From: Fibrobacterota bacterium
GTDB lineage: Bacteria > Fibrobacterota > Fibrobacteria > UBA11236
Reading direction: 5' to 3'
DNA length: 20,376 bases
Assembly: GCA_043753995.1 (NCBI GenBank)
Contig: JAYUVP010000200.1
Span: 1-20,376 of the forward strand
The notes beneath the pieces are model-generated. The model was not told where the DNA came from, made no database searches, and saw only the letters and a program-made list of their open reading frames with translations. The translations under genes were made by a program, and so were the position numbers. This document shows positions 3,106 through 16,984 of the stretch, one piece after another (the first letter of the stretch is position 1; every line of letters begins with the position of its first letter).

Positions 3106-6100
3106 TTAGGAAATGGTGATGGCGGCGGTTGGCGTATTCACGGCTCCGGAAAGAGCCCGTAAGACAAGAGTGCCGATATTGTTGGGCCTCACAAAAAAGG
3201 TGAATTGCCCATTGTCGGCGGCTATGAAGGCATGCGAATTCACGGCAATGGTAGAGGCCGGTCCCGACACGACGGAGAGGGTGACATTCCCGGCGAAATT
3301 TGGCACTCGATTGCCACCCGTATCGCGAGGAATGACGGTGACCGGAAAGCTGACGCCGCGGTTTTGATTTGGGCCCACTTCAAAGCCGAAAGCTGTCACG
3401 GCCGCAGGCGCATTGACGGTGATGGCCGCCGAGTCGCTGGTCACTCCACCTTGGACCGCTCGGATTTGGAAATTCCCCGCCGTATAGGCGACCAAGGCCA
3501 AGGGCTTGACGCCGCGATCGGCATCGCTGAAATCCAAGTGATCGTTGGGATTGCTGGGTTGGTTATTGAAGAAGACGCCGCGATTCGCACCACCCACCCC
3601 CGAACCCGCCATGGCGCCGGGTTGGGTGGAGATGAGGACTCGATTGGAATAGTCATGCTTCAAATTGCCGAAGGCATCACGCGCACGCACTTCATAATTC
3701 ACATTCGCACCGGCGGCTATGGCATTCACGCCCGTGATGTCGAAATGATGCAAAGCGCCTGGCAAGAGGTTCAGGCTGGAGCTTTCCCCGGAAACCGCCT
3801 CGCGCACGGCCTGTAATTTCGTTGCTCCCGCGGTATAAACGAAAACGGAGAATTCGAATTTTCCGCGATCACCGGCGACGAAATTATGCTTGAACTTTTG
3901 AATGTCGAAGGCATCGGCCTGGGCATCAGCAACATGCACACCGCGCTTGGTGGCGGGCGGATTGGCGCCTTCCTGACCCATTTGTCCCTCGATCACGCGC
4001 AAGTCCACTTGTCCGGTGAAGTTCGTTTTGACGCGGTCGTGGGTGTCTAATACCGTGACTGTGAATTTCAGTCTGTCTCCCACTCGCGGCGGAGTCGCAG
4101 TCACACTCGCGCCATTGAAATGCGTCACTTCGACACGCAAGCCGCCTAAAGGCCCCGGCGGTCCCACATGAATAATGGGCGAGGCGGAATCGTCATTGTG
4201 CCCGGCTCCATCGGTAGCCGTTAGCCGGAAATTTTCCACGGTATGATTGCGCACGGTGAAGGTGGCCATGCCATTCGCGACCGCGATTGCGGTGGAAGCG
4301 CCTGCGATATTGCCGTTGATGTGAACGCCGGTAGAATTGACTCCGACGAGCGCTCCTGCCGTGCCATTGTGGCCGATATTGACATTGCCGTTGAAGTCGG
4401 TTTTCAAATTGCCCATGGCGTCGGCTGCGAATAAGGTCACGGTCAAATCCTCCGCGACCGAGGCACCTTCCCCGTGAACGAGGACGAAGTGATGCAAGGC
4501 CTGGGGGCGAATAGTCCAATGAAACACGAAGTCATCGAATTCCTCGACATGCGCCACAATTTGGGCCAAGTCGGCATTGCCTGTGGCCTCGGGACCGGTA
4601 ATGCCCGCCTTATTGCGCATGCGCGTGATTTGATCCAAGGGCATGAAGCTCAGGGTCGGCGCGCGCGCGAAAAGAGGATTGCTCGGATCAATGGTATTGG
4701 GGTAGATGCACAAGCGGCTGTAGCGCGCCAATTCCTCGCGCTTGGCGCTGAACTGGCACAGGAACCAAAGCGTTACGCCATTGGCTGCGACGGTGAAAGG
4801 GAAATTGGGTAGAAGGGTTCCCGCCAGGGGTCCGGCAGGCATGCGTAAATCCTGCGCGCGCGCCCAGGTGGTGGCCCGGCGATTGGCCTGGGGCAAAGCG
4901 GCGGCGCCATCTTCTACGGGCAAAAAACTCCCGTCGGCGCGCTTGAAATAAATCTGGGCATCGGCAATAGGCGAGCGAATTTCAAAGCCATACCAAGTGG
5001 TGGCGGCATGATCGCGCCCCGTCAATTGATCGAAATGCGCGGTGGCCAGGATATTGGCCCCGCCTGCCGGATTGGGAATGCGCTGCTCGCTGGGCAAACC
5101 GTCATTCACCGCCGCCAAAACCGCTTTCCAAAAATGCACGCGGCGGAAACCGGCGAGATCCGAAGGCACCAATTGTGGGTCGGGATTGACTGCCGCACCC
5201 GGCAAATACCGTCCTCGCTGAGCGGCGGGCGCCAATGCCAAGGATGGCAATAAATCGGCGGTCGCTTCGAGCATTTCGATGATGCGCGGCATATTCGCGC
5301 CTTGCTGCAAAATCGGATTCGCCAACATCATTTCTGCCGCGACTCCGGCTGTCATGGGTGTGGAGAAGGATGTGCCGCTGATAGGGGCTATGGTCACGGC
5401 ATTGGGCGTGGTCGTGGTCGACTGTAAGGCGCGGACATTTTGGCCGGGCATGGCGATAGAGACTTCATCGCCTAGGAAGGTGAAACTAGTGGGGAATTCG
5501 GTAATGCCAGAAGTATGTGCGGCGCCACTCAAAGCCTGAGTTGATGCTCCGACAGCCATGACGCTGCGGCGATAAAGATTATTGCCGGTGAGGCTACTAC
5601 GCTTTTGCGCTCGACGCGGGGCATGGTTTCCGCTTTCGGTGTGCAGGACGTCGCGACGAGCCAATTGCGAGGGTGAGGTTTGGACATTGGCTGCAGCTAG
5701 GAAAAACAACTTGCCAGCCGTCACCATGGTGCGTGCGGCTTGGCGTATGGCATTTTGTTGATTCACTGACAACGTATCGAAAAAGCGGACATCGAAAGAA
5801 GTGGAGACGACTTTCACTTCCGGATCGTTTTGCATGATACGGTAGCGGGCAAGGGAGCCGAGAAAATCCGTATCGCTAGTGCCGGAAAAAGACTTGACTG
5901 GACGAAATTTCACATCCTTGCCTGTGCCTAAAACGACTTGGCGAGCATTTCTCGACGCGCCGCCGATTTCATCTCCCACCCCGTCGGCAGCCATGGTGGT
6001 CATCACCGAGGTCCCATGGGGCGTGGCTTCATCAGTCATGACGAGATTCTGAGCCGGGCTCAACTGCACGAAGAGAAAGTTCGAAGCGTTTTTTCCGACT

Positions 6101-8415
6101 ATGGTTCCACTCAAGTCCCCATCCCGAAAAACGCGATGGGTGGTGACTCCGGAATCACCGATCAAGGTGGGCCGGACAAGACGGCGCCCACGCACGAAAA
6201 GCCGATTGGAAATATCACGTCGATCACCACTGAAATCATCATTGTGGCCGAAACCCGAATCCCAGCACCCCACGGCGACAGGGGGATTATCGCCGCCTTG
6301 GGCGGGAGCATCCGGCTCCGGGGCAATCCAGGCAGGGTAGGGGGCAAGGGCGCCGCGCTGCGTGATGTCCACTGGCAGCGGAGGTGCGGTGCGCAAGACA
6401 AAGGTGATGCGTCGGTTTTGCGCATTGGTCGGGTCGGAGGGAATGAGGGGAAAGGCTTCGCCTGCCGCAAATAAGGCCGGTTGCCCGGCGCCGTCGCGAT
6501 GAAAATCCGTGGCCTGCAAAGGGGTCGGCACCAAATCATCCATATAATCCGAAATCAGTTGGCGGCGCGCAGCGCGATTCAATTGACCGGAACCATTGTC
6601 GGGCAAACCTTTTTTCTGAAGGAATTTACGCGAGGCGGCACGAGTGGAGGGATCGGAAACACCATTCACGGGACCCTGATAAAAATCCAGGTGCTTGAGC
6701 ATGAATTGCAATTCCGACGTACCCCAAGGTGTTTCCACGATCAGCGGTGTGCCATCGATGCGCGTCAGCCAGGTGTCTGGATTTTTGATGAGCAGGGCAT
6801 GGGCGATTTCAGCCCGGAACTGGGAGAGCGTGGTATTATGCGCATCCTCGCCGCTGGCGTCCGCATGTCCGAATATGGCCATTTTGCGGCTGGGATTATC
6901 GCTCTGCGCTTGCAGGGCCGCCCTCACCGAGGGTTTGCAAGAAGGCAGAATAAAGGTCTTGTTCAAAAAATGGCTGCCTTCGAGAATGACTGAGGGCGGA
7001 GCCGTGGTGCCGAAGCGAATATGGTCGATCAGTCTATGCGCGGGAAAGGTGTGAATGTAAAAGTGATGGAAATAATCGGTGGCGGCATTGGTGAAGGAAT
7101 GATTGCCGGCGGTAAAATCACGACGAAAAGCTTCCGCCAATTTTTCGGTCACCACTTCCGGGCCGCCGGTTGCGACATCCAAGCCGAAACTCTCGATGCC
7201 AGGCAAATGCGCTTCATTGGCAAAAGCCACATAGGACGCCAGGGCATTGCCGGCTACGTAAATCGCGGTAGAGGCCTGAACAATGCGGTATTGCGGTGCT
7301 ATGCCTTGCGGTATCAAATGCAAAGCATGTAGAGTTTGCGACAGCTCTTTCCATTTCGTGCCGTCTTTGAAATCAAGCAAAACGTGATTGGCGGAAATGT
7401 CGATGACTTTTTCGCCTTCCTTCGTTTCGTCCATGCCGTAATTCCAACCGACGACAATATCCTCGTCATCCTCGTAAATCAGGAAATGCGCTTCATAAAC
7501 CGTTTCCCCGCTACTCGTATCTTGGATGAGAATGCGATTTTCGCCGAGCAAAAGCATGCCCAGAAATTGGGACTCCTGTTCCGGATCGTCATAGATTCGC
7601 GTGCGGGGAGTGGGGGAAGTCCAAGTTCCGGTGATCGCGTTTTCTTCTGGGTTTACGGCCTTCGGCATTGCAGCTTTGTCCGTCACCGCCCCGGCGGGAT
7701 TCAAAAAGCGCGTGATATCCAATTGATCGGGCGTTTCATTTTGTCCGTCATCGAGCAATACGCGTAAATTGTTGGCGCCGATTTGCGGACAAATAAGCTT
7801 AATCCCCGAAGCTCGGTCTTTGAATATTCCGAATCGTATCGAGCGAAATTTACCGTCGTCACTGTCTTTCAATTGCACGTCCAGGCAGCCGAATTTGCGC
7901 TTATGAGTCCCGACTTCAAGCGTGCCTTCGACTTCAAAGCCCACCGCATCGCCCTTGGAAATGTCGATGGCCAGCACGTCCTCGAACGGCGCGGCATCGG
8001 CGCTGCCATCGCCGTAGGTGAGCAAAACGAACTTTTCCGATACCCAAACATTGCCTTTTAATTCCAGGGGAATCTCTTTTGTTACGCTACCTGCTTTTAA
8101 CGTGGCCTTCACCGGTGCGCTTTGCCCTTGCACCTCGCTGGCATCGATTTCAATTTGCGCCAAAGACGCCGGCTCTGGGCGGCGATTCAGTTTTTTCAAC
8201 AAAGCGACGACGGCTTTGGGCACGGGACAAAACACGGCGCTGGAACCAAGCTCGCTTGCCGTGTTTTCCGCGCTATCGGAATAGGGCGTGAAATAATCTT
8301 TTCCCCGCAAGATCCGGATTTTGGGAATTCCCCGCAAACGGATTTGCGCGGTTTCTCCGGTGAATAGGCCATTCTCTTCTTGGCCATCAAGCACGATTTG
8401 CCGTAATTCGCCCAT
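3106..8415 (-). CDS. Large S8 subtilisin-like serine protease with inserted OmpA-like and PG-binding domains and C-terminal Ig-like repeats; putative T6SS-associated effector
   Basis: 1769 aa, no signal peptide. S8 catalytic motifs in order: VAVGCWDSGFG (Asp), PHGTSVM (His), AAAN (oxyanion Asn), SGTSFSTPMTAGVAA (Ser). OmpA_C motifs: IFGHADASGEDAHNTTLSQFRA, AGEAFP...NRRITF. Four C-terminal repeats of the form V...D..GN...F.G.V. Confidence 0.85.
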   Translation of the reverse strand: MGELRQIVLDGQEENGLFTGETAQIRLRGIPKIRILRGKDYFTPYSDSAENTASELGSSAVFCPVPKAVVALLKKLNRRPEPASLAQIEIDASEVQGQSAPVKATLKAGSVTKEIPLELKGNVWVSEKFVLLTYGDGSADAAPFEDVLAIDISKGDAVGFEVEGTLEVGTHKRKFGCLDVQLKDSDDGKFRSIRFGIFKDRASGIKLICPQIGANNLRVLLDDGQNETPDQLDITRFLNPAGAVTDKAAMPKAVNPEENAITGTWTSPTPRTRIYDDPEQESQFLGMLLLGENRILIQDTSSGETVYEAHFLIYEDDEDIVVGWNYGMDETKEGEKVIDISANHVLLDFKDGTKWKELSQTLHALHLIPQGIAPQYRIVQASTAIYVAGNALASYVAFANEAHLPGIESFGLDVATGGPEVVTEKLAEAFRRDFTAGNHSFTNAATDYFHHFYIHTFPAHRLIDHIRFGTTAPPSVILEGSHFLNKTFILPSCKPSVRAALQAQSDNPSRKMAIFGHADASGEDAHNTTLSQFRAEIAHALLIKNPDTWLTRIDGTPLIVETPWGTSELQFMLKHLDFYQGPVNGVSDPSTRAASRKFLQKKGLPDNGSGQLNRAARRQLISDYMDDLVPTPLQATDFHRDGAGQPALFAAGEAFPLIPSDPTNAQNRRITFVLRTAPPLPVDITQRGALAPYPAWIAPEPDAPAQGGDNPPVAVGCWDSGFGHNDDFSGDRRDISNRLFVRGRRLVRPTLIGDSGVTTHRVFRDGDLSGTIVGKNASNFLFVQLSPAQNLVMTDEATPHGTSVMTTMAADGVGDEIGGASRNARQVVLGTGKDVKFRPVKSFSGTSDTDFLGSLARYRIMQNDPEVKVVSTSFDVRFFDTLSVNQQNAIRQAARTMVTAGKLFFLAAANVQTSPSQLARRDVLHTESGNHAPRRAQKRSSLTGNNLYRRSVMAVGASTQALSGAAHTSGITEFPTSFTFLGDEVSIAMPGQNVRALQSTTTTPNAVTIAPISGTSFSTPMTAGVAAEMMLANPILQQGANMPRIIEMLEATADLLPSLALAPAAQRGRYLPGAAVNPDPQLVPSDLAGFRRVHFWKAVLAAVNDGLPSEQRIPNPAGGANILATAHFDQLTGRDHAATTWYGFEIRSPIADAQIYFKRADGSFLPVEDGAAALPQANRRATTWARAQDLRMPAGPLAGTLLPNFPFTVAANGVTLWFLCQFSAKREELARYSRLCIYPNTIDPSNPLFARAPTLSFMPLDQITRMRNKAGITGPEATGNADLAQIVAHVEEFDDFVFHWTIRPQALHHFVLVHGEGASVAEDLTVTLFAADAMGNLKTDFNGNVNIGHNGTAGALVGVNSTGVHINGNIAGASTAIAVANGMATFTVRNHTVENFRLTATDGAGHNDDSASPIIHVGPPGPLGGLRVEVTHFNGASVTATPPRVGDRLKFTVTVLDTHDRVKTNFTGQVDLRVIEGQMGQEGANPPATKRGVHVADAQADAFDIQKFKHNFVAGDRGKFEFSVFVYTAGATKLQAVREAVSGESSSLNLLPGALHHFDITGVNAIAAGANVNYEVRARDAFGNLKHDYSNRVLISTQPGAMAGSGVGGANRGVFFNNQPSNPNDHLDFSDADRGVKPLALVAYTAGNFQIRAVQGGVTSDSAAITVNAPAAVTAFGFEVGPNQNRGVSFPVTVIPRDTGGNRVPNFAGNVTLSVVSGPASTIAVNSHAFIAADNGQFTFFVRPNNIGTLVLRALSGAVNTPTAAITIS
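3112..4500 (-). repeat. Four tandem diverged Ig-like (Big/invasin-type) protein repeats at the C-terminus of the S8 protein
   Basis: Repeat cores: VTLFAADAMGNLKTDFNGNVNI, VTVLDTHDRVKTNFTGQVDL, VRARDAFGNLKHDYSNRVLI, VIPRDTGGNRVPNFAGNVTL. Also HNFVAGDRG, HLDFSDADRG, HAFIAADNG. Confidence 0.7.
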
Positions 8416-8424
8416 GATTTCACC

Positions 8425-8973
8425 TCAATTCAGAATGTGCCAATTGCAGGCAGTGTCTTTGCCGTCGATATTCAAGACGGGGTGCAATTCGCCAACCGGC
8501 GCATCAATCCGGAATAAAGTCGCGGGGTGGGTGAGAGCCTCACCCACCGATCCCTTGGGCTCGACATGCTGTATCGAAATGCGAAGGGTATCGCCTTGAA
8601 TTTCTACGCCCTGCAAGCGAATCGCATGTCCCGTTGTGCCTTGCACCCCCAAAGTGACTAGGAAGGCGTGGTGCCGTTTCCAATCGGGGGCACTTGACGC
8701 GACCTTGGCCCCAAGGTGCAGGCGTGTCAAGGCACCCTCGCTGCGAAGCCAATAACCCTGTGGACCTACTTCGATATCCGTCATGGGAATGAGATCAGGC
8801 TCTTCGTCAATGGGGTTCAAAGTGAGAATATCGTTCATCACAACAAAGGGGACTTTTTTCATTGCGGACATGGCGTCCTCCTTATGGCCGGCGCAGCCGG
8901 CTTGCAATGTCAGCATGGCGAATGCCGTGGTGATGGATAGCGGACGAAAGAGTTGACGGCATGGGAATGTCAT
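8425..8973 (-). CDS. PrcB C-terminal domain protein (protease complex subunit PrcB family), probable lipoprotein
   Basis: FLVTLGVQGTTGHAIRLQGVEIQGDTLRISIQHVEPKGSVGEALTHPATLFRID follows the PrcB_C pattern (LG.+.TGG..I....V...+.+.+....P......A.T.P..+..+). Hydrophobic N-terminus ends in LQAG|C (atypical -3 residue). Start overlaps the upstream stop (ATGA); its own stop is 9 nt before the S8 gene. Confidence 0.7.
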   Translation of the reverse strand: MTFPCRQLFRPLSITTAFAMLTLQAGCAGHKEDAMSAMKKVPFVVMNDILTLNPIDEEPDLIPMTDIEVGPQGYWLRSEGALTRLHLGAKVASSAPDWKRHHAFLVTLGVQGTTGHAIRLQGVEIQGDTLRISIQHVEPKGSVGEALTHPATLFRIDAPVGELHPVLNIDGKDTACNWHILN

Positions 8974-9593
8974 TCTATAGCCTCCACTTTGAGCGCTTCA
9001 AGTTGCGGCTTAACCAGAATTTCCCATTGCTTTTGAATTAAGCGACGTATCTCCGGCGAAGCCTTGGAATTATTCGCGTCAGGCTTACTTTCGTATAAAC
9101 TCAAGTCGCCCCCCAATTTGGGGATTCGTCCGCGATTACCGTATTTTATTCCATTCACATACAGAAAAAGTTTTAATGTATCGGGATCGAGGCCATCAGA
9201 TACCTTGGAGTACCAAAGAAAAACATCGGTTTGCCCGTTGCTGTCGACATCCAACAGGCGATATTGATTGTGGGAATACTCAATGGTTTCCAAGGGATTA
9301 GAGTTGAAGTCGCGCAATTTCCAAATGGATTGGGAGGTTGTTTTTTGAACTGAATAAAACCCGGCTTGTATTTCAGAACGGTAGGGGGACGATCCAAATT
9401 CGCCATGATTGATTCTGCGAATAACTAACCCACATTTGTCGTTTTTGTCGATGAAAGGAATGGAATTAAGTACGATGTTTGAGTCCAATTGCAAGTGTGC
9501 ATTGGGTGATTCAGAATAAGAAGGGAACGCGAAAATCAAGAAAGAAAAATAATAGTAGGTAACCATGAATTGTGAATTAATGTTGGGAGACAT
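8970..9593 (-). CDS. Exported protein resembling the M949_RS01915 family; candidate immunity protein
   Basis: 207 aa with a hydrophobic N-terminus (YYYFSFLIFAFPSYS). Motifs WKLRDF...LLDVDSNGQTDVFLWY....DGLDPDTLKLFLY.NGIKYGNRG align by eye with the neighbouring 9600-10184 product. Confidence 0.6.
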   Translation of the reverse strand: MSPNINSQFMVTYYYFSFLIFAFPSYSESPNAHLQLDSNIVLNSIPFIDKNDKCGLVIRRINHGEFGSSPYRSEIQAGFYSVQKTTSQSIWKLRDFNSNPLETIEYSHNQYRLLDVDSNGQTDVFLWYSKVSDGLDPDTLKLFLYVNGIKYGNRGRIPKLGGDLSLYESKPDANNSKASPEIRRLIQKQWEILVKPQLEALKVEAIE

Positions 9594-9599
9594 AGGTAG

Positions 9600-10184
9600 T
9601 CAAAATCCCGCAGCCATCTTCCAAATTGCTTCTAGGTGGGTACTGAAATTTGGATGCTTTTCTAAAATGTTGTCCTTGGTTAAGATCCCACCTTCAGGTG
9701 GAAAACGATCTGATTTCACAATGGAAATTCCACGAATGGCGGCTTTCATTTGGCCCTCCCTCAATATCGCTATTAGCACTTCTGGCCCTATGTCGCCCGA
9801 ACAAGCGAGCCTGTAGGCTGCAGAGGACTCCGAAATATGGTTTGAATCCAAATCAGAAATGGATGTTAACTCCGGGATGAAATACCCGGCGTGATCCAGC
9901 CGATGACAACTTTGTCTGTCTTTGATTTCCCATTCACGAATCCAAGTCGGTCCCTCTTGGCGGAATTGGCTTGCTTTGAGGGTGATGACATCTTCCCTCT
10001 GGCTTGAGCGCGAAGAATCTTTTGAAAGCACAAGGAAATGTTGGCCTGGTTTGTCGGAACATTCAAATTTCGCTTGAATCCGCGGTAGAACCTGTTTGCT
10101 TATATAGGACGTTTCATTGCGAACCTGCTGCTTAACCTTTGGCTGCCGAGGCTTTGGTTTATGTTCATTACTATTCAATGACAT
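9600..10184 (-). CDS. M949_RS01915-family-like protein; candidate immunity protein
   Basis: WEIKDRQSC...FIPELTSISDLDSNHISESSAAYRLACSGDIGP...ILREGQMKAAIRG is the pattern I recall for this family. Start placed at ATG 10184 (MSLNS, purine-rich upstream); the ORF track starts at 10211. No clear signal peptide. Confidence 0.65.
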   Translation of the reverse strand: MSLNSNEHKPKPRQPKVKQQVRNETSYISKQVLPRIQAKFECSDKPGQHFLVLSKDSSRSSQREDVITLKASQFRQEGPTWIREWEIKDRQSCHRLDHAGYFIPELTSISDLDSNHISESSAAYRLACSGDIGPEVLIAILREGQMKAAIRGISIVKSDRFPPEGGILTKDNILEKHPNFSTHLEAIWKMAAGF

Positions 10185-10791
10185 GCTCCTCGCCCTTAAT
10201 GCAATAACCACGCATATAGTCGCCGACCTCTGAGGTTGTTCGAATATAAACGCCTATTTTTTTGGCTTGAAACACTCCAATCCAATTCGCTAAGGAGTCA
10301 CCACTGACAACATTTGGGTCATACTGTTGATAAACCACGCAGGAATCGGCATGCACGGGCCCGCAGTCGGTTAAAAACGCCTTCAAACTATCTGGTACAG
10401 TCGAACCTATCTGTGGTCTGGTGTGGGCGATAAACAGCCAGGAATCAGAAGAACCTATTCTCTGTATCACAAGACCGGATGGGTCGATACGCCATTCTCG
10501 AGTAACAGGTGTATCGGTCTTGTGGGTGATGACTTTCAGGTATGTTTGCCTGCCTTTCTTTTCCACCGAAACGATGGAATCCCGATATTCGGTGCCCTCC
10601 ACCCATTCTCCTTCCATTTTTGTCTGGTAACTCCACCAGTCTCCAGGAGAGGGAGAGTACCAAGTAGTTGAGTCGATGGTCAGGTTCGAATCGACATTGG
10701 AGTATGATTTGTAATCTTGTGGCGCTGGGTCAATTTTTTTAATGCAGGCGCTCAATGCCAAACAGGTTAGTGACAAAATAAAGAGTTTCAA
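10171..10791 (-). CDS. Hypothetical lipoprotein, candidate immunity protein
   Basis: The ORF extends to 10923. An in-frame TTG at 10791 gives a classic lipoprotein signal, MKLFILSLTCLALSA|C; ATG 10830 is an alternative start. Beta-rich body (WYSPSPGDWWSYQT...). Confidence 0.7.
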   Translation of the reverse strand: MKLFILSLTCLALSACIKKIDPAPQDYKSYSNVDSNLTIDSTTWYSPSPGDWWSYQTKMEGEWVEGTEYRDSIVSVEKKGRQTYLKVITHKTDTPVTREWRIDPSGLVIQRIGSSDSWLFIAHTRPQIGSTVPDSLKAFLTDCGPVHADSCVVYQQYDPNVVSGDSLANWIGVFQAKKIGVYIRTTSEVGDYMRGYCIKGEEHVIE

Positions 10792-10945
10792 AATTCCGCA
10801 ATTGAAGTCAATGCGTGCGATGGGATTCATTCCAAGAAACGTTTTGACAGAAATCAAATTTATACCAAAAAAAATCCTTGCGGTTTGAACTTCGGCGCCC
10901 ATATTCAAGTGCTTAGTTTTCATTCTGGGTACCGGTGTTGCTCAA

Positions 10946-11215
10946 TTAAACTCTGCCTTCAAATTCTTCTTCGGTGCTGCATTTGACTGTATTTATTGGA
11001 ACTTGAATGCATTCCACTGCCGTGTTTGAAACTTTCAAAGCCGCTGTGACAATCGGATTTTTTAAGTCTGTGTAATCAACCCACGCTAAAACAGACGTAT
11101 TATCCCCTGACCTCCAGAATTCTGAGTCAAAAGGGGGTTCGGTTACTTTCTTGGTGTCACGTATGACCATCACTGGCTCTGATGAGTTTGCTCTTAATGT
11201 GAAATAGGTGCCCAT
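10946..11215 (-). CDS. Small hypothetical protein (89 aa), possibly a gene fragment
   Basis: Co-oriented ORF filling the gap in the operon, with GAGG upstream of ATG 11215. No signal peptide or recognisable motif. Confidence 0.5.
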   Translation of the reverse strand: MGTYFTLRANSSEPVMVIRDTKKVTEPPFDSEFWRSGDNTSVLAWVDYTDLKNPIVTAALKVSNTAVECIQVPINTVKCSTEEEFEGRV

Positions 11216-11239: not shown

Positions 11240-11947
11240 CTATTTCACCATTTCAGCGATTTCGGAAAATCCACTATCAGACGCAATGGATGTGGCCGTG
11301 GCACCTGAATTCTCAGCCACTTCCTTTCTCGCCCCTTTTTCGATCAAGGCCTTAGTCAGCGCCACGTTGTTCCGTTTGGCTGCAATTAATAGTGGGTATT
11401 TGGTTTCTTCGCCCCCACTTGGGCCAGACCCGTCTACTTTAGCCCCTTTCGTTATTAAGAGCAGCGCAATTTGCAGCGCTTCGTCTTTGTCCTGCATATT
11501 GCAGGCCAGGGTTAGCGGGGATTCGGCATCCTCAGAATAGGTCTTGTTTATGTCTGAGTATTGATTGTTCTCGACGATATATTTGATTAAATCCACCCTG
11601 CCAAAAACTAGGGCCGTATATAAGGCATCATAAATATAGGTCTCGTCGGTGAGGCACTTCTCGATGGATGCGCCTTTTCCTATCAGGTCCCTAAACTTCA
11701 TGAGCGAATCTTGGTAGATGGCCTCGCCCAGATCCGAAGCCGTGTACCCTTCAATGGCATGGGAGAATGTGGGCTGCGAGGAATCTTGTTTAGGGGCGAG
11801 TGGGGCTGGTGTACTGACACTGTGTGATACAGGCGCTTCGGGCTTCACATTTGGCTGACCCTCTGCCGCCTTTTGACGATTACATCCAGCCAGCAAGGCG
11901 AGGATGAGAATAGGGGCGGCCGAAAGCCTATTGTTTAATTTCAACAT
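11240..11947 (-). CDS. Ankyrin-repeat lipoprotein, probable cognate immunity protein of the PAAR effector
   Basis: True start is probably ATG 11947 (MLKLNNRLSAAPILILALLAG|C, canonical lipobox), not 12094. Ankyrin repeats: SPLTLAC...ALLLITKGAKVD, YPLLIAAKRNNVALTKALIEKGA, GATATSIASDSGFSEIAEMV. Overlaps the effector 3' end by 20 nt. Confidence 0.85.
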   Translation of the reverse strand: MLKLNNRLSAAPILILALLAGCNRQKAAEGQPNVKPEAPVSHSVSTPAPLAPKQDSSQPTFSHAIEGYTASDLGEAIYQDSLMKFRDLIGKGASIEKCLTDETYIYDALYTALVFGRVDLIKYIVENNQYSDINKTYSEDAESPLTLACNMQDKDEALQIALLLITKGAKVDGSGPSGGEETKYPLLIAAKRNNVALTKALIEKGARKEVAENSGATATSIASDSGFSEIAEMVK

Positions 11948-13709
11948 GGATGCATGGCTCCTTTGCCAATCGCGATACCTTCCCGGTGTTGGCGATGTCT
12001 TTAATGTCATGGAACACCTTTTCGACACTTTTGTCTTTGGCGAGTTCGAGGATAAATTCTTTAGTTTGCTTGGCAGGTATTCCAATATCGACAATATTCA
12101 GTTTGTTGTATTCCTCTGTGCTGACACAATGTTTTGAAACCCGCTTCTTTTCCTTGGAAAGCGATTCAATTTTTTCGGTCATCTGCTTGATGGTTTCCTG
12201 CTTAGCGAGATTCTTTTTAGTGCACTGGTCGTATACGTCCGTCACCTCCATACCCGGTGCTGCATAGGCTAGTCGCTTATTATTAGCGAGATTGTTATAC
12301 ATCGCTTCAGCTTGTTGGTGCGGGTAACGAATCGTGCTTGTAATAGTCACGCTTTCAAGGCCAACGGCCTTTGCCGCTTTCCCGATGATCTCGGTACTCT
12401 TACTTGATAGGATTTTCTTTCGGTCGGCATCCAAGCCGCTTGAAAAATTAACGTGTTTCGAATGGGACTCTAGTTCGGATCTGGAATCCGAATTGCCATC
12501 TTCTCCAGCATCCCCAGGCTCTTCTATCTTCGCCTTTTGCTTTTCTTGACTCGGCTTTAATCTCGTCTTCGCCTTGCCTTGCGAGCCTCCCGCCGGCCCC
12601 ACCCCTGGCTTCTCTGCCTTCGTGACGCGACCATGAATCACAATCTCCGGCAGCACAATCGTATACGGCCCGGCGGGTATGTCTTTCTGCTCGGCCTTCC
12701 CCTGCTTGTCCACCTGGCCCGTGCGCACGCTGCCGTCGCGCAAATGCAATTCATACTTGGCTGCAGCTAAAGGTTTTTCGTCGGGGTCGAGTATTTCGAT
12801 TTTGGCATCATCGAGGCATTGCATGCGGTCGCTGACACCCACTATGCCTTCGGCCACTAGGATGAAGAAATATTCGACCTTGCCCTTGGGGCCGTCGGCT
12901 TCCACCTTGGCCAATTCTTCTTTGGTTAAGGCCCATTCGCCGGTAACCTTATTGCCTTGAATCTGGGTGGGTAAGGTTTTCAATAGTCTTTGATTGCCAT
13001 TGCCCAAAGCTTCGAAAATCATGATAGGGCAAGCCACGCCATTCTCAAAACCTTCGGCATCGGCCTTCAGCGTCAGCATTTCGCCGGGCTTGCACTTGGC
13101 CTTGGACCATTTCACATTCACCAAGCAAGCGAATTCGACTTTGAAAGAACCCGCTTGTGAATACCCGTCATGGCGTATGCGCCCGCCAGTGGCTACCGCC
13201 CCGGCGATTTTCTGGCCATCGGGATCGGTGAGTTTGTAACGCAAGCCTTGCAAAGGCAAATCGGCCGAATCGACCACGGTGCATTCGACATAGTGATTTT
13301 CGGTGCGTGGCTCGGCGGGCTCTATGGGCACATAGGGCTTGATGGCCTTGGGACCATTTTGCTTGGCCGCTGCTGCTGCCGCTGCCGCCGCTGCCGCTCC
13401 ACCTCCACCTGCACCACCGGCTTCCCCAATGAGCACGGTCATGCAGCCCATGGCCAGCATGTCGGGTGGGCCAACGCAAGGGGAAAGATCGGACACACGT
13501 GCGGCGGGCTTTTTCCCCAGCAGTACACCCATGCTTCCAAGAGCAACCGGGCCACCCACATGCGGTACCACGCCGGTGACCATTGGACAAACGTGCATGT
13601 CACCCAGGGTGCCTGCGGGCATTTTGCCGATGAGCACCGTGGGTGCACCTAATATCAGGGTGCCGCCATGAGTCGACACATCGCCTAAGCGGCCAGCTGG
13701 CTTACCCAT
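11928..13709 (-). CDS. Specialised PAAR T6SS effector with C-terminal Zn DD-peptidase-like (M15/LAS-type) toxin domain
   Basis: N-terminal PAAR domain: MGKPAGRLGD..THGG, MPAGTLGDMHVCP, KPAARVSDLSPC. Start set at ATG 13709 (GGAG RBS, 8-nt overlap with the DUF2169 stop). Then a Gly/Ala linker and two transthyretin-like segments. C-terminal motifs: ITSTIR..QQAEAMY, SKH, VD, CIHVE. Confidence 0.85.
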   Translation of the reverse strand: MGKPAGRLGDVSTHGGTLILGAPTVLIGKMPAGTLGDMHVCPMVTGVVPHVGGPVALGSMGVLLGKKPAARVSDLSPCVGPPDMLAMGCMTVLIGEAGGAGGGGAAAAAAAAAAAKQNGPKAIKPYVPIEPAEPRTENHYVECTVVDSADLPLQGLRYKLTDPDGQKIAGAVATGGRIRHDGYSQAGSFKVEFACLVNVKWSKAKCKPGEMLTLKADAEGFENGVACPIMIFEALGNGNQRLLKTLPTQIQGNKVTGEWALTKEELAKVEADGPKGKVEYFFILVAEGIVGVSDRMQCLDDAKIEILDPDEKPLAAAKYELHLRDGSVRTGQVDKQGKAEQKDIPAGPYTIVLPEIVIHGRVTKAEKPGVGPAGGSQGKAKTRLKPSQEKQKAKIEEPGDAGEDGNSDSRSELESHSKHVNFSSGLDADRKKILSSKSTEIIGKAAKAVGLESVTITSTIRYPHQQAEAMYNNLANNKRLAYAAPGMEVTDVYDQCTKKNLAKQETIKQMTEKIESLSKEKKRVSKHCVSTEEYNKLNIVDIGIPAKQTKEFILELAKDKSVEKVFHDIKDIANTGKVSRLAKEPCIHVEIKQ

Positions 13710-14802
13710 AGCGAACTCCGTAATCAAGCATAGGGATTTTTTTCAAAGCCTCAGGACCATCATAATAGGCCGAGCCGCGCCAGGTGACGCAGAGCTGATT
13801 GGTCTCTTTGAAAATGACGACAGTCTGCAAAACCGTTTTCAATTCGCTGGCGCCTTGGCCGACGTCGAGAAATAGAATGGGACGGTCACCAGCCAATTGA
13901 AGTGCGAATTGGGGATGGTCGGGATCGAGGTGAGCGAGCACAAGGCTCTCTTTGCCTGAGAGATAGGGAAAGCACAAACCGGGCGATGCTCCATTGAAGA
14001 ATTGAGCATTCAAAATGGGAGCGGGTGGGGGAGGTTGATTCGAAGTGCCCTGGCCGATGGCCGGCATTTCCTGCATGGCGCGTTGACGCTCCATTTCGGC
14101 GCCAGTGGCTGAGTCGGGAGGCAAGCCCGCCATAGTATAGCGCGGGAAAAAATTCTTGCCATAATACCCGAGTCCTTGGGGATCGGGATACAAGGGCCAT
14201 TTTTCATAATCGCCTAAAGCAATATTCGCGGGCGTCAGCAATTTCAGGGGATCTTCGATATTGGGCAAAATCAAATCTTGAATGGCCTTGGCGTGATTCT
14301 TCACCACAAAGCCAGTACCCACCGGATTTTTCGCGTAAGTGAAAGGCACACCTTCGACGCTTTTTTCGTCTTTGCCGCCATAGGCGAGAGCATAGGTCAA
14401 TGGCATGCGTTCGAAGGGCGCGGGATCGGAAAAGGCGGGGCCGCTCGGGGTAATGTAGGCGCGGCGATCGCCGATGACTCGGATGATTTTGCGCGCCGTC
14501 CCGATTTGTATGCCAACATCTAAATGATAGGCTTGTCGTCCTTTCGGGCTCTGCGCCATGCCGATGAGTACGACATCGGTCATGGGCTTATACGCCACCA
14601 AGTCCGATTCCAGTTTGACGGCATCGATGGTGGGATTGCCTGCGCCCCAGTATTCATCGGCCTCGACGAAGGGCATTTGCTCGCTCTCGTCAGTCCAGGC
14701 GGTTTTCCCTTGGGCGAACTTGTAGGTGCGCTTGGCGAGTATGGAAAGAATCGGCGCCCCGTCGGGAGCATTGCCGGGAATCAGTTTTGTAATCCAAGTC
14801 AC
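13702..14802 (-). CDS. DUF2169 family T6SS adaptor/chaperone
   Basis: 366 aa between vgrG and PAAR. Motifs: KRTYKF, ESDLVAYKPMTDVVLIG, RVIGDR, PFERMPLTYALAYGG, NPVGTGF, LPNIEDP, FFNGASPGL, LQTVVI...VTWR. GTG start with GAGG RBS. Confidence 0.93.
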   Translation of the reverse strand: MTWITKLIPGNAPDGAPILSILAKRTYKFAQGKTAWTDESEQMPFVEADEYWGAGNPTIDAVKLESDLVAYKPMTDVVLIGMAQSPKGRQAYHLDVGIQIGTARKIIRVIGDRRAYITPSGPAFSDPAPFERMPLTYALAYGGKDEKSVEGVPFTYAKNPVGTGFVVKNHAKAIQDLILPNIEDPLKLLTPANIALGDYEKWPLYPDPQGLGYYGKNFFPRYTMAGLPPDSATGAEMERQRAMQEMPAIGQGTSNQPPPPAPILNAQFFNGASPGLCFPYLSGKESLVLAHLDPDHPQFALQLAGDRPILFLDVGQGASELKTVLQTVVIFKETNQLCVTWRGSAYYDGPEALKKIPMLDYGVRYG

Positions 14803-14815
14803 AATAGCCTCTGAT

Positions 14816-16984
14816 TTAATTGATCATGACCATGGGTCCCTTGACCTCAGCCATGGCTTGACCTTCAACGCTTACCTGTAGTCCGCCAATCTTGGTTTGG
14901 CCTTTCGAGGAAATATCCATCTTGGCCTTGGCCTCCAAGGTGACTTGAGCCCCCTTCAAATTAGCGGCCGCCGTGCCTTCCAGATTGACGTTTTGCTTGC
15001 CCTTGGCGCTGAAATTCATGCCCTCGATCACGAAATCTTGCTTGGCCTTGGCATTGAAAGCTCCTGACTTGGCTTCCATGGTGATTTCCTTGGCGGAAAT
15101 ATTCAATGAGCCTTTGGCCGTCAACTCCATGTCGCCTTCGGTGGTGAGCGATACCTTGCTGCCGCCTATGTCGAATTGCAGGACATGCTTGCCATCGCCA
15201 TCTTGCAAGGCAATCATTTTGTCTTCGTCGCTGATTTTCAGGATATGGCCATTTTTTGTTTGTATCGCTAGCGTTTTTTTGCTGTCGTCCAAGGTGATGA
15301 CATGGCCGTATTTCGTCTGCAAGGTCATGATCGTGTTTTTATTGTCAAGCTTGATAAGATGGCCGCCATCCGTAGTGGCAATGCGGATATTTTCGTTCTT
15401 GTCATCGAAGACCATCTCGTTTAAATCGGTGGTCTTGACGTGAATTTCCTTGTGCTCTTTATCGTCATTCATGGCGAGCTGATGCTTACCAGAGGAAGTC
15501 AATTCGACTATGGTTTTGTCCTTGAGATCGTCGAGTTTGAGCTCATGTCCCGAAGCACTGCGTAACAGGCTTTGGGTATGATTGCGGCTCGTTACTGGGC
15601 TGGGATTCATCGGGTTAGGAATAGCTCCGACCGCCACTGGCCTATCGACATTGCCATCGATGAAGGCGAGAATCATGTCATTGCCGCTATGTATGGGAGC
15701 GTGCAGGCCATAACCTGGTCCCGCATAGGGCTGAGCCATGCGTATGGGTAGGCTGGCCTTGCCGTCTTTCAAATCCGATAAATCGAAGGGCAGCTTCACA
15801 TGGTAGCGGCCTTCCTCATCCAGGGAGGCATAGTCGCTCTTCGGGCCATCGACACGGGCCGTAATGACGCCATTGATTTTTGGGCGTTTCGCATTGGCCG
15901 TCGGTCGATAATGAATTTCGGCGGGGATGCAGACAAAGGTATTGTGATAGATCACATGGGTTTGATCCGTCTCAAAGCCTTCCCGTTGATCGCCTTGATG
16001 TTGCACGCCTACGATTAAATATTTGCCTTCAAAAGGGCTATGGGCCCCGTCTTCGAGTTCGAATCGATAACCTGAACGCATTCCTCGGGCAATTCCGGTT
16101 CCGCGCAGAACCACTTTTTCGTTTTGCAATTGGCCGATGCGGTGCGCGGCCCATTGGGTTGCCGCTGTCACGTCAAGGGTTCCGGGAGAAAAAGTTTGCA
16201 TTTCACCCTTGCCTCCTTGTCCCGTGGCGCGGGCGAAGAGGTTCACGTCGGGAGTGCGTTCGTTATAGTCTTTCACCACCGATTTGGCTGAAACGAAGCG
16301 GGTTTGTCGTACCAGGCTGGTGACATGATCCTGCTGCATATGCGATAAGCCTGCCTCTTGCTGATAAATCAGATTCGGCGTATGAGGCATGGAAGGATAA
16401 GTGCCGGCAGAATCGAAGAAAACAATTTTTTCTTTACTGCCTTCGTGATTGAAGTGAAAACAAATGCCTTCGTCCTCCAGCAGGCGAAGGATGAAATTCA
16501 GATCGGTTTCATTGTATTGCACCGTGAATTCACGCTTAGCATAGGTGCCGGTCAATTGAAATAGAAGGTCATCACCACTGGAAAGCGTATGGCTTTCCAG
16601 GACTTCCTTCACGATATCCTTCACGTCCTTGTTCTGGAAGACGCGGTTTTGTCCAGCAAATTCGAGGGCTTTGACGCGAGCCTCAATGTGAAATTCATAG
16701 AGATAGGCTTCGCGACCGAAGTCGGCGCTATGGTCGGGATGCTGGAGAAAGGTGGTCACCATGCCATGATGCGAAACAGAAAAATCGTCGCCGGACACCG
16801 TGAGGGTGGCCGGTTTGCCAATCAAATCCTCATAGGTGAGATTCGGCTCTTCCGTCACGGCCGTGAGTCGCAGCTTGAAGATTTCCGAGATATGTTCGTC
16901 CAAGGAAAAGGTCTGAACCCGGAAGCGGTCGGCAGGTTGACCTTGAATGCTCAAAGAGAATCTCTGTAGGGTGGACGAGGCCAT
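14816..16984 (-). CDS. vgrG: Type VI secretion spike protein VgrG/TssI
   Basis: 722 aa. Motifs: QNRVFQNKDV, REFTVQYNETDLNFILRLLEDEGI.F.F.H, KDYNERTP, LDEEGRYHVKLPFD, IRMAQPYAGPGYG.H.P...G..+..AF.DG..DRP, SGHELKLDD. These are followed by gp5-type beta-helix repeats; no toxin extension. Confidence 0.97.
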   Translation of the reverse strand: MASSTLQRFSLSIQGQPADRFRVQTFSLDEHISEIFKLRLTAVTEEPNLTYEDLIGKPATLTVSGDDFSVSHHGMVTTFLQHPDHSADFGREAYLYEFHIEARVKALEFAGQNRVFQNKDVKDIVKEVLESHTLSSGDDLLFQLTGTYAKREFTVQYNETDLNFILRLLEDEGICFHFNHEGSKEKIVFFDSAGTYPSMPHTPNLIYQQEAGLSHMQQDHVTSLVRQTRFVSAKSVVKDYNERTPDVNLFARATGQGGKGEMQTFSPGTLDVTAATQWAAHRIGQLQNEKVVLRGTGIARGMRSGYRFELEDGAHSPFEGKYLIVGVQHQGDQREGFETDQTHVIYHNTFVCIPAEIHYRPTANAKRPKINGVITARVDGPKSDYASLDEEGRYHVKLPFDLSDLKDGKASLPIRMAQPYAGPGYGLHAPIHSGNDMILAFIDGNVDRPVAVGAIPNPMNPSPVTSRNHTQSLLRSASGHELKLDDLKDKTIVELTSSGKHQLAMNDDKEHKEIHVKTTDLNEMVFDDKNENIRIATTDGGHLIKLDNKNTIMTLQTKYGHVITLDDSKKTLAIQTKNGHILKISDEDKMIALQDGDGKHVLQFDIGGSKVSLTTEGDMELTAKGSLNISAKEITMEAKSGAFNAKAKQDFVIEGMNFSAKGKQNVNLEGTAAANLKGAQVTLEAKAKMDISSKGQTKIGGLQVSVEGQAMAEVKGPMVMIN

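Follow-up and report, generated by a model that had tools for sequence, protein, structure and literature searches.

A signal-less subtilase and a PrcB_C-like lipoprotein in a vgrG operon of a Fibrobacterota bacterium: a candidate T6SS protease effector and its proposed immunity protein

Here we describe two adjacent genes of a Fibrobacterota bacterium (NCBI assembly GCA_043753995.1; 5.2 Mb, 356 contigs) that may encode a secreted protease effector and its immunity protein. They lie in a 20,376-bp stretch of DNA that is an entire contig (JAYUVP010000200.1, C200) and that we call the window; all features of the window given below are on its minus strand. One gene encodes a 1769 amino acid long S8 family pro-subtilase without a signal peptide (P0001; 3106-8415), and the other a 182 amino acid long exported lipoprotein that resembles PrcB_C proteins (P0002; 8425-8973). 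We propose, at a probability of roughly 0.6, that P0001 is a cargo effector of a type VI secretion system (T6SS) destined for the periplasm of a target cell, and that P0002 is the immunity protein, which would act as an inhibitor by blocking the active site. Sequence comparison and structure prediction support this interpretation for the clade to which the window's pair belongs.

In the proposed mechanism, the subtilisin-type serine protease would be made without a signal peptide in the cytoplasm of the producer, mounted on the VgrG/PAAR spike encoded upstream, and fired with it into a neighboring Gram-negative cell. There, its wall-binding modules may hold it on the sacculus, where it could degrade envelope proteins of the target. 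The lipoprotein, apparently translationally coupled, would be exported to the producer's own periplasm and, by covering the active site, could protect the producer from attack by sister cells; in the cytoplasm of the producer, the enzyme may be kept latent by a propeptide-like domain. We place the action in the periplasm because the protease carries peptidoglycan-binding modules and no signal peptide and its partner is exported. We link the pair to a T6SS because it belongs to a tight same-strand run of genes after vgrG-DUF2169-PAAR, in a genome that has a core T6SS cluster and three vgrG genes. In addition, neighboring genes resemble further pairs of periplasm-targeting effectors and lipoproteins.

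The first-pass annotation, made from the DNA letters alone, had described the protease as having an intact catalytic triad and no Sec signal, and this description holds. The Pfam family Peptidase_S8 (PF00082) matches residues 754-1038 at 59.9 bits (cut-off 21.8). Asp719, His800 and Ser1016, which occur in the triad order Asp-His-Ser, and the oxyanion-hole residue Asn910 are invariant in 16/16 aligned relatives (codons 6259-6261, 6016-6018, 5368-5370 and 5686-5688, respectively). A predicted structure of residues 320-1330 (model ma11ab645242b; predicted local distance difference test [pLDDT] 74.8, predicted template modeling score [pTM] 0.66) superimposes on mature subtilisins with Z scores of 24-25 (261-306 residues aligned, root-mean-square deviation [rmsd] 2.5-3.4), and Foldseek matches it to solved subtilases with a probability of 1.00. 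In chain-level structure searches with this model, the catalytic domain was the sole match returned. From the Pfam match, the invariant residues and the fold match, we assign the S8 catalytic core to residues 716-1110 (5086-6270). The N-terminus of the protein (MGELRQIVLDGQEENG) lacks a hydrophobic stretch and hence, by inspection, a signal peptide; this start is conserved in the homologues P0004-P0008, and no signal peptide is visible by eye in P0001, P0004-P0008 or the copies at the other loci. These findings identify the 1769 amino acid long protein as an S8 subtilase, which is probably active.

The catalytic domain appears to be split. Its first part, residues 424-469 (7009-7146), corresponds in the model to the N-terminal segment of the mature subtilisin fold and includes the near-invariant motif HHFYIHTFPAHRLID (residues 450-464). 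Among the structure matches listed, 50/50 alignments begin at model residue 102-128, mostly 105-110 (residues 424-429 of the protein), and pair this start with residue 1 of the mature subtilisins. Since subtilisin residue 1 aligns from residues 424-429, the HHFYIHTFPAHRLID motif would form the helix segment at the N-terminus of the catalytic domain. Approximately 250 residues separate the motif from Asp719, and they contain an OmpA-like module followed by a PG_binding_1 module (residues 470-715, 6271-7008). When the family profile was compared with the PDB, OmpA-like peptidoglycan-binding domains were matched at residues 463-531 (E-value 2.6e-10) and the peptidoglycan-binding domain of SleB at residues 559-615 (E-value 7e-6). 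With the single whole protein, the Pfam scores of these modules are below the cut-offs (18.8 versus 27.2 and 21.3 versus 23), and PG_binding_1 scores 24.0 bits on the protease fragment alone. Two distant relatives, P0010 and P0011, lack the stretch: their version of the motif (...TFPAHRLID) stands approximately 10-15 residues ahead of the beta-1 strand. They confirm independently that the wall-binding module is an insertion, which, according to the alignments and the model, follows the N-terminal helix of the catalytic domain and precedes the Asp719-bearing strand. P0010 and P0011 have Gly in place of the catalytic Asp, and P0011 has a hydrophobic, signal-like start and a dockerin-like repeat; they may represent a different subfamily, probably exported and possibly inactive (a pseudo-protease).

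The same tandem of OmpA-like and PG_binding_1 modules occurs at the N-terminus of many 320-680 amino acid long proteins in the same bacterial family (E-values 1e-41 to 1e-24, nine genomes). Examples are found on contig C43 (L044, 6890-8803) and contig C342 (L045, 887-2632 and 5006-5968) of genome G000, and in L046 and L047. Some of these proteins adjoin a Pre-toxin-TG protein or a LysM-DUF3289 protein. Toxins of this lineage may generally use the tandem as a module for retention in the periplasm.

Ahead of the catalytic domain, the protein is built like a pro-enzyme in the predicted structures, with beta-sandwiches followed by a propeptide-like domain and then the catalytic domain. In the model of residues 1-470 (m22a390f2d7c7; pLDDT 79.5, pTM 0.77), beta-sandwiches occupy residues 30-320 approximately (7456-8328). 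This region is specific to the family, matches only generic beta-sandwiches in the PDB (Foldseek TM 0.10-0.19; Z approximately 6 in the wide search), and is possibly the part that loads the protease onto the spike. Residues 330-420 (7156-7428) form an alpha/beta domain like those of I9-type subtilase propeptides. In an unbiased search of this domain against 48,161 chains (VIA wide search), the best matches were the PC1/3 prodomain (Z 7.0, rmsd 2.4, 70 residues aligned), the subtilisin prodomain (Z 6.9) and POIA1 (Z 6.5); PCSK9, fervidolysin, EpiP and pro-subtilisin E matched at Z 6.1-6.4. Subtilase propeptides and propeptide-like inhibitors make up 11 of the 24 top rows. A low-confidence linker (residues 416-425) joins this domain to the putative mature N-terminus, and pro-subtilisins cleave themselves between propeptide and mature N-terminus. 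We regard the propeptide assignment as a lead, strengthened by the position of the domain. The first-pass annotation had overlooked this domain as well as the insertion of the wall-binding modules into the catalytic domain.

On the other side of the catalytic core lie a conserved beta-rich domain (residues 1111-1330, 4426-5085), recognized by invariant alignment columns and by the motifs WYGFEIR and EEFDDFVFH, and approximately four immunoglobulin (Ig)-like repeats (residues 1331-1769, 3109-4425), recognized by internal repeats in BLAST and by matches to Big_1-bearing proteins. Pfam searches with the fragments 1-330, 320-470, 1105-1335 and 1330-1769 (E-value at most 1) returned at most weak BatD and Big_1 matches, which concern the Ig-like repeats; the beta-rich domain matched no Pfam family.

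The protease and lipoprotein genes form part of a run of 13 minus-strand open reading frames (ORFs) that extends from position 19493 to the end of the contig, with small gaps or overlaps between ORFs. The first gene of the operon encodes a 722 amino acid long VgrG spike protein (14816-16984; TIGR03361, 338.2 bits; Phage_GPD, 227.2 bits), which is 49% identical to the VgrG of another Fibrobacteria locus of the family (L002). It is followed by a 366 amino acid long DUF2169 protein (13702-14802; PF09937, 199.6 bits), a member of a T6SS spike-associated adaptor family that is 64% identical to its copy in L002 and of which locus L016 holds a partial copy at its edge. The 599 amino acid long PAAR protein comes next (11928-13727; PAAR_motif, 60.2 bits; SpaA, 23.9 bits); it has prealbumin/TTR-like modules, and its PAAR head is 60-74% identical to the protease-adjoining PAAR proteins of L002, L003, L004 and L016. 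The start of the P0002 gene overlaps the end of the preceding gene by ATGA. Its stop codon (TGA) is separated from the ATG of the protease gene by a 9-nucleotide spacer (8416-8424), and a Shine-Dalgarno-like site, GAGGTG, read from the sequence, overlaps the stop codon. An exported PrcB_C-domain gene 9 nucleotides upstream of the protease in a vgrG-DUF2169-PAAR operon had been reported by the first-pass annotation, and such an arrangement is present, with a PrcB_C match below the threshold (see below). The core T6SS cluster of the genome is on another contig (C278) and includes TssC, Hcp, TssE, TssF and TssG. The protease and partner genes have similar GC contents (56.1% and 54.8%; genome 53.9%), and composition groups them together, apart from the four small genes upstream (41.7-46.2%). 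Scans of promoters and terminators were at chance level (16 versus 14.1 expected, and 32 versus 27.6 expected).

We are interested in whether the T6SS association extends beyond the window. The family is rare: a search of 5.8 billion clusters gave five other proteins that align over 95% or more of the query, and in the phylum of the window the full-length protein was present in one of 151 sampled genomes (the window's own), the others matching the OmpA/peptidoglycan-binding module alone. The flanks of the family loci were scanned for domains, with one of the scans taking in 109 of the 159 ORFs that are 90 amino acids or longer, and with BLAST (all stop-to-stop frames of at least 60 amino acids, at every locus). 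The close relatives, which share 38% identity or more, come from Fibrobacterota, Ignavibacteria and metagenomes. Of their assessable loci, 6/6 are linked to T6SS genes, the window included; L015 has no 5' flank and is outside this count. L002 (Fibrobacteria) has VgrG, DUF2169 and PAAR-CHAP, with a PLD gene following the pair. In L003 (Ignavibacteria), Hcp-TssE-TssF-TssG-ClpV-VgrG-PAAR lies directly upstream, and in L004, ClpV-VgrG-PAAR...PAAR does. A PAAR-extension protein is encoded directly upstream in L014, and L016 has DUF2169 and PAAR-M23-PG_binding-VanY. For the window's clade, the T6SS interpretation is well supported by these gene neighborhoods.

We examined 24 family loci, 10 usable ones from 185,579 species genomes and 14 from a metagenome collection, by running a profile built from eight partners on every frame of at least 60 amino acids in all loci. 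Two short fragments (L012, L013) and nine relatives that are shorter or more distant (L022, L024, L030-L036; 23-36% identity over part of the query) were left out of the counts. The partner directly adjoins the protease in the window and in 21/24 family loci. The three loci without it (L014, L021, L026) have at most 164 nucleotides of 3' flank, and the partner is present in 21/21 loci with at least 494 nucleotides. The pair is therefore kept in 22/22 assessable loci, of which 18 are distinct (L006 = L017; L008 = L019 = L020; L018 is nearly the same as L029). The neighboring partner is an exported protein of approximately 180-220 amino acids, encoded downstream of the protease at all loci but the window (upstream) and L016 (both sides); L015 has two copies in tandem. 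By eye, the copies have a hydrophobic leader that is mostly followed by Cys, and a simple lipobox pattern is found in 13 of the 24 copies listed. The partner profile found no match in 9/9 of the shorter or more distant relatives. One of them, the shorter protease relative of L024 (6933-8144, minus strand), is 31% identical over residues 177-1302; approximately 600 nucleotides downstream of it, on the opposite strand, a serpin gene stands where the PrcB-like gene would be. A search for orphan immunity genes gave a single partner copy in the window's genome, one in each of five pair-holding genomes, and one weak match in 150 other genomes of the Ignavibacteria class.

The signal peptide of P0002 ends in LTLQAG-C27, which is lipobox-like by eye, with a non-canonical Gln at -3. 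The PrcB_C assignment (PF14343) draws on its relatives, because the homologous partners in L003 (24.1 bits) and L016 (upstream copy, 35.9 bits) exceed the Pfam cut-off of 24; it also draws on the ESM Atlas, where P0002 scores 0.93 and 18 of 30 matches belong to PF14343 clusters. A sequence search of the PDB with the partner profile identified no relative of known structure (best E-value 0.17). In two of 150 other genomes of the phylum, a small sample, PF14343 genes are present, and both adjoin tatC, neither an S8 gene. In this sample, which does not allow generalization, PrcB_C genes elsewhere in the phylum are thus not beside subtilases, and the general protease-inhibitor role that had been suggested for the domain is not established.

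How might the two proteins interact? To predict the complex, we combined residues 700-1320 of the protease, with an alignment of 16 rows, and the mature partner, with one of 8 rows. Three runs scored 0.83, 0.84 and 0.83, and the best of three controls scored 0.00. Of 157 solved complexes, 116 attain this mark, compared with 2 of 215 mismatched pairs, a calibration that is rough here because our own alignments were used. At least 75% of the contacts agree between runs, and the pLDDT of the partner is at least 79. The protease side of the predicted interface comprises residues 719-720, 797-800, 907-916 and 1010-1017 with neighboring loops, i.e., the triad and the oxyanion hole. The partner side consists chiefly of the loops 110-116 (VQGTTGH) and 136-148 (HVEPKGSVGEALT). 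The tightest predicted pairs join Glu145 of the partner (model residue 118) to Ser1016, Gly1014 and Asn910. In this confidently predicted interface, the partner sits over the catalytic residues Asp719, His800, Asn910 and Ser1016. Placement on the active site is what co-folding should give if the partner is an inhibitor, as the first-pass annotation had suggested.

Several results weigh against our proposal. P0002 itself scores 18.1 bits with PrcB_C (E-value 0.003), below the cut-off, so that of the two families named by the first-pass annotation only PF00082 passes; with the NCBIfam model denti_PrcB (NF033596) it scores 16.6 bits against a cut-off of 125, short of equivalog-level similarity to PrcB. 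Moreover, PrcB of Treponema denticola, which gave the family its name, is not an inhibitor: the available text on it describes a lipoprotein that the protease PrtP needs for its stability and that belongs to the active dentilisin complex as a subunit (PMC8167434). The predicted interface is not distinguished by conservation, with values of 0.305 for the interface and 0.328 for the rest across all 21 partners (permutation p-value approximately 0.75); among the eight close partners the difference (0.517 versus 0.451) is not significant either (p-value approximately 0.08). Since solved subtilisin-inhibitor complexes are plentiful in the PDB, the model may favor filling the cleft with any loop, although both runs in which the partner was unrelated gave 0.00. 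The propeptide-like domain matches at Z scores of about 6.1-7.0, a range that overlaps common folds (RRM and ACT also reach approximately 6), and no I9 Pfam match to residues 320-470 was found at an E-value of at most 1; subtilase propeptides are poorly conserved in sequence. The spike would also have to take on a cargo of 190 kDa. Finally, the distant members of the family (31-36% identity), mostly metagenome-assembled genomes (MAGs) of Myxococcota and one Nannocystaceae genome, do not share the T6SS neighborhood. VgrG, PAAR, Hcp and DUF2169 were found at 0/12 of their loci (1.8-10 kb upstream), TssC in only 2/5 of their genomes (MAGs of unstated completeness), and the VgrG-type signal in these genomes consists of weak Phage_GPD matches in 3/5. 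With T6SS genes at 6/6 close and 0/12 distant loci, the T6SS interpretation is supported for the window's clade and is not extended to the distant clade. Delivery to the periplasm, as postulated by the first-pass annotation, is accordingly favored by the peptidoglycan-binding modules, the missing signal and the close loci, and disfavored by the distant loci. Of the two features that would speak against it, homologues unlinked to T6SS genes and homologues with signal peptides, the former is present in the distant clade and the latter was not seen by eye among the family members.

The dentilisin system suggests a different role for the lipoprotein: it might stabilize an active protease or anchor it in the envelope of the producer itself, in the service of nutrition or surface processing and not as part of a toxin system. 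The two systems are alike in having a subtilisin-family protease and a PrcB-type lipoprotein in one operon (here, a putative lipoprotein gene with a 9-nucleotide gap to the S8 gene), with binding of the two proteins predicted in our case; according to the portion of the source at hand, PrcB binds PrtP and remains in the active complex (PMC8167434). Conservation of the pair at 22/22 loci fits any obligate partnership, and the distant clade has no T6SS genes nearby. However, PrtP is acylated, i.e., itself exported, and located at the surface, and PrcA is needed too (PMC8167434, as far as the available text goes), whereas in our family no protease was seen by eye to have a signal peptide and the lipoprotein is exported, so that the two are made for different compartments. 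A cytoplasmic protease and a periplasmic lipoprotein would meet only after delivery, which favors immunity over a dentilisin-like stabilizer. The pair of the window also lies in a vgrG island, with the partner predicted over the catalytic residues and the close relatives linked to T6SS genes. We noticed no gene resembling PrcA in the operon, although no search was aimed at PrcA. We consider a stabilizing role unlikely. It is also conceivable that the partner has two roles, and that the lipoprotein or a cytosolic form of it folds or activates the protease before export. There is said to be a precedent in T6SS phospholipases (Tle) and their Tli immunity proteins, for which a preprint, 'Paradoxical activation of a T6SS phospholipase effector by its cognate immunity protein', reportedly describes a two-form mechanism. 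In P0002, Met35 and Met38 stand just past the signal peptide, where a second form could start, but there is no sign of internal initiation. The accumulation of PrtP requires PrcB, as the available part of the dentilisin source states (PMC8167434). Nevertheless, the propeptide-like domain already offers an intramolecular chaperone, and the model shows occlusion of the active site and not a folding interface; a dual role seems quite improbable to us. The inhibitor or immunity function that the first-pass annotation assigned to the PrcB-like protein is thus backed by adjacency and by the predicted complex and opposed by what PrcB does in dentilisin.

The distant clade raises the question of delivery. 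The pair might be a periplasm-acting toxin and its immunity protein that merely ride a vgrG island in the window, with the Myxococcota-type members using another route (a different contractile system, vesicles or lysis). Consistent with this, TssC was not found in 3/5 of the distant genomes; L007 (9542-9900) and L009 (9401-9907) have an extra N-terminal extension of 120-170 amino acids, and L023 and L028 share an unrelated small gene upstream. However, orphan cargo effectors at a distance from T6SS genes are common, and two of the distant-member genomes (G003, G004) have sheath genes. Small upstream proteins of L011 (9387-9791) and L025 (6733-7656) carry a TTR-like module, comparable to the PAAR-fused module of L003, L004 and L014, and in L023 a DUF4123 adaptor gene lies at a distance of 3 kb. 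Delivery by a route other than the T6SS is, in our view, also a minor possibility. The small upstream protein of L023 and L028 is 118-132 amino acids long, belongs to no known family, lies just ahead of the protease and is 64% identical between the two loci; the flanks of L023 further contain several transposase genes and an AbiE toxin-antitoxin pair. Another idea is that the protease is not a toxin but an accessory of the secretion apparatus, which trims co-secreted toxins or clears wall-linked proteins for T6SS assembly. The gene does stand among other effector genes, and Zhang et al. (2012), in the part of the text available, list subtilisin solely as a processing protease of polymorphic toxins of the Sec and Photorhabdus virulence cassette (PVC) types (PMC3482391). 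The same text does not list subtilisin for the T6SS, and an exported inhibitor-like partner, wall-binding modules and sporadic distribution (1/151 genomes) fit an accessory toxin better. We give this idea very little credence. A periplasm-targeted T6SS protease with a cleft-blocking lipoprotein as immunity protein remains the interpretation that we prefer.

Peptidases are already known among interbacterial toxins, and the window's pair differs from each of them. The first-pass annotation had been aware of no described subtilase T6SS effector, and we likewise found neither such an effector nor an inhibitor role for PrcB_C in the open literature (subscription-only papers and supplements lay outside the search). 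In Pseudomonas aeruginosa, the C-terminal zinc-metallopeptidase of the H2-T6SS protein VgrG2b acts in the periplasm and has the immunity protein PA0261 (PMC6899460, in the text available). There, the metallopeptidase is fused to VgrG; here, a separate 1769 amino acid long serine subtilase carries a propeptide-like domain, a wall-binding insertion and Ig-like repeats, and a PrcB_C-like lipoprotein is the immunity candidate. Cpe1 of E. coli, a papain-like cysteine protease, acts in the cytoplasm on GyrB and ParE, and its immunity protein Cpi1, as the accessible part of the report has it, does not act through occlusion of the active site (PMC12136450). The proposed pair would resemble Cpe1-Cpi1 in that a protease serves as the interbacterial toxin and has an immunity protein of its own, but the protease is a serine protease probably acting in the periplasm, and active-site occlusion is predicted. 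If the propeptide assignment is right, P0001 would have, like the I9 pro-subtilisins, a ferredoxin-like domain directly before the mature N-terminus; unlike them, it has no I9 sequence match, approximately 320 residues precede the propeptide-like domain, and a 245-residue insertion splits the catalytic domain. The partner resembles subtilisin inhibitors such as POIA1, CI2 and eglin c in having a loop predicted to lie in the catalytic cleft, and differs from them in having no solved relative by sequence. T6SS effector-immunity pairs are a kind of system that is already known; to the first-pass interpretation we add the pro-enzyme layout and the wall-binding insertion.

The remaining genes of the window include candidates for other such pairs. 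The gene after the protease encodes an 885 amino acid long protein (P0003; 432-3089) with a PG_binding_1 match (26 bits) and a weak Glyco_hydro_46 (GH46-like) match. Its C-terminal H-x6-D...H motif, recognized by eye, resembles that of VanY/M15 peptidases; a search against the PDB by sequence gave no match at an E-value of at most 1. Its first 290 amino acids are homologous to the product of a 284 amino acid long gene that follows the pair in L003 (E-value 2e-26), and through this gene the N-terminus of P0003 is related to the C-terminal half of PAAR proteins. The open-ended ORF at 2-520, which has a lipoprotein signal (LLMAC by eye) and no Pfam family, is the probable immunity gene of P0003, and the two probably make up a second effector-immunity pair aimed at the cell wall, with an N-terminal module that is shared and spike-related. 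The PAAR protein has two TTR/prealbumin-like modules and a C-terminal region of approximately 170 amino acids without family assignment. It is followed by a gene for an ankyrin-repeat protein with an internal lipoprotein signal (11240-12094), whose likely true start gives the lipoprotein signal LLAGC; together, the two genes (11240-13727) are a probable third effector-immunity pair. The four small genes of the low-GC block (8970-11215) encode tandem NF046077 paralogs (203 and 207 amino acids), a 250 amino acid long lipoprotein and an 89 amino acid long protein. By eye, a relative of the NF046077 paralogs stands directly after the PAAR-CHAP effector of L002, and relatives of the 250 amino acid long lipoprotein precede the pair in L016. 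These genes may confer immunity to toxins that are not encoded here. A DsbD-like protein (17133-19493) is encoded at the far end of the run.

It is tempting to carry the proposal further. P0001 might be a latent zymogen, silenced by its propeptide-like domain, that matures after injection, tethers itself to the sacculus and digests envelope proteins, and PrcB_C might represent a new class of cleft-occupying subtilase inhibitors; we regard this fuller version as tentative and think it rather doubtful that all of its parts are right. If it is true, it would predict the site at which PrcB contacts PrtP in dentilisin, and a serine subtilase would join a metallopeptidase (VgrG2b) and a cysteine protease (Cpe1) among the peptidase-fold T6SS antibacterial effectors that we found described. 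It would also raise the question of which envelope proteins are the lethal targets. PrcB_C is a widespread domain without an attached mechanism, for which the pair gives a first testable role. The pro-enzyme layout suggests how a producer may safely hold a broad protease in its cytoplasm, and the inserted OmpA-like and PG_binding_1 unit may be a reusable retention module, recurring as it does in toxin-linked proteins. A rare cassette that is scattered over Fibrobacterota, Ignavibacteria and Myxococcota would fit horizontally traded weaponry.

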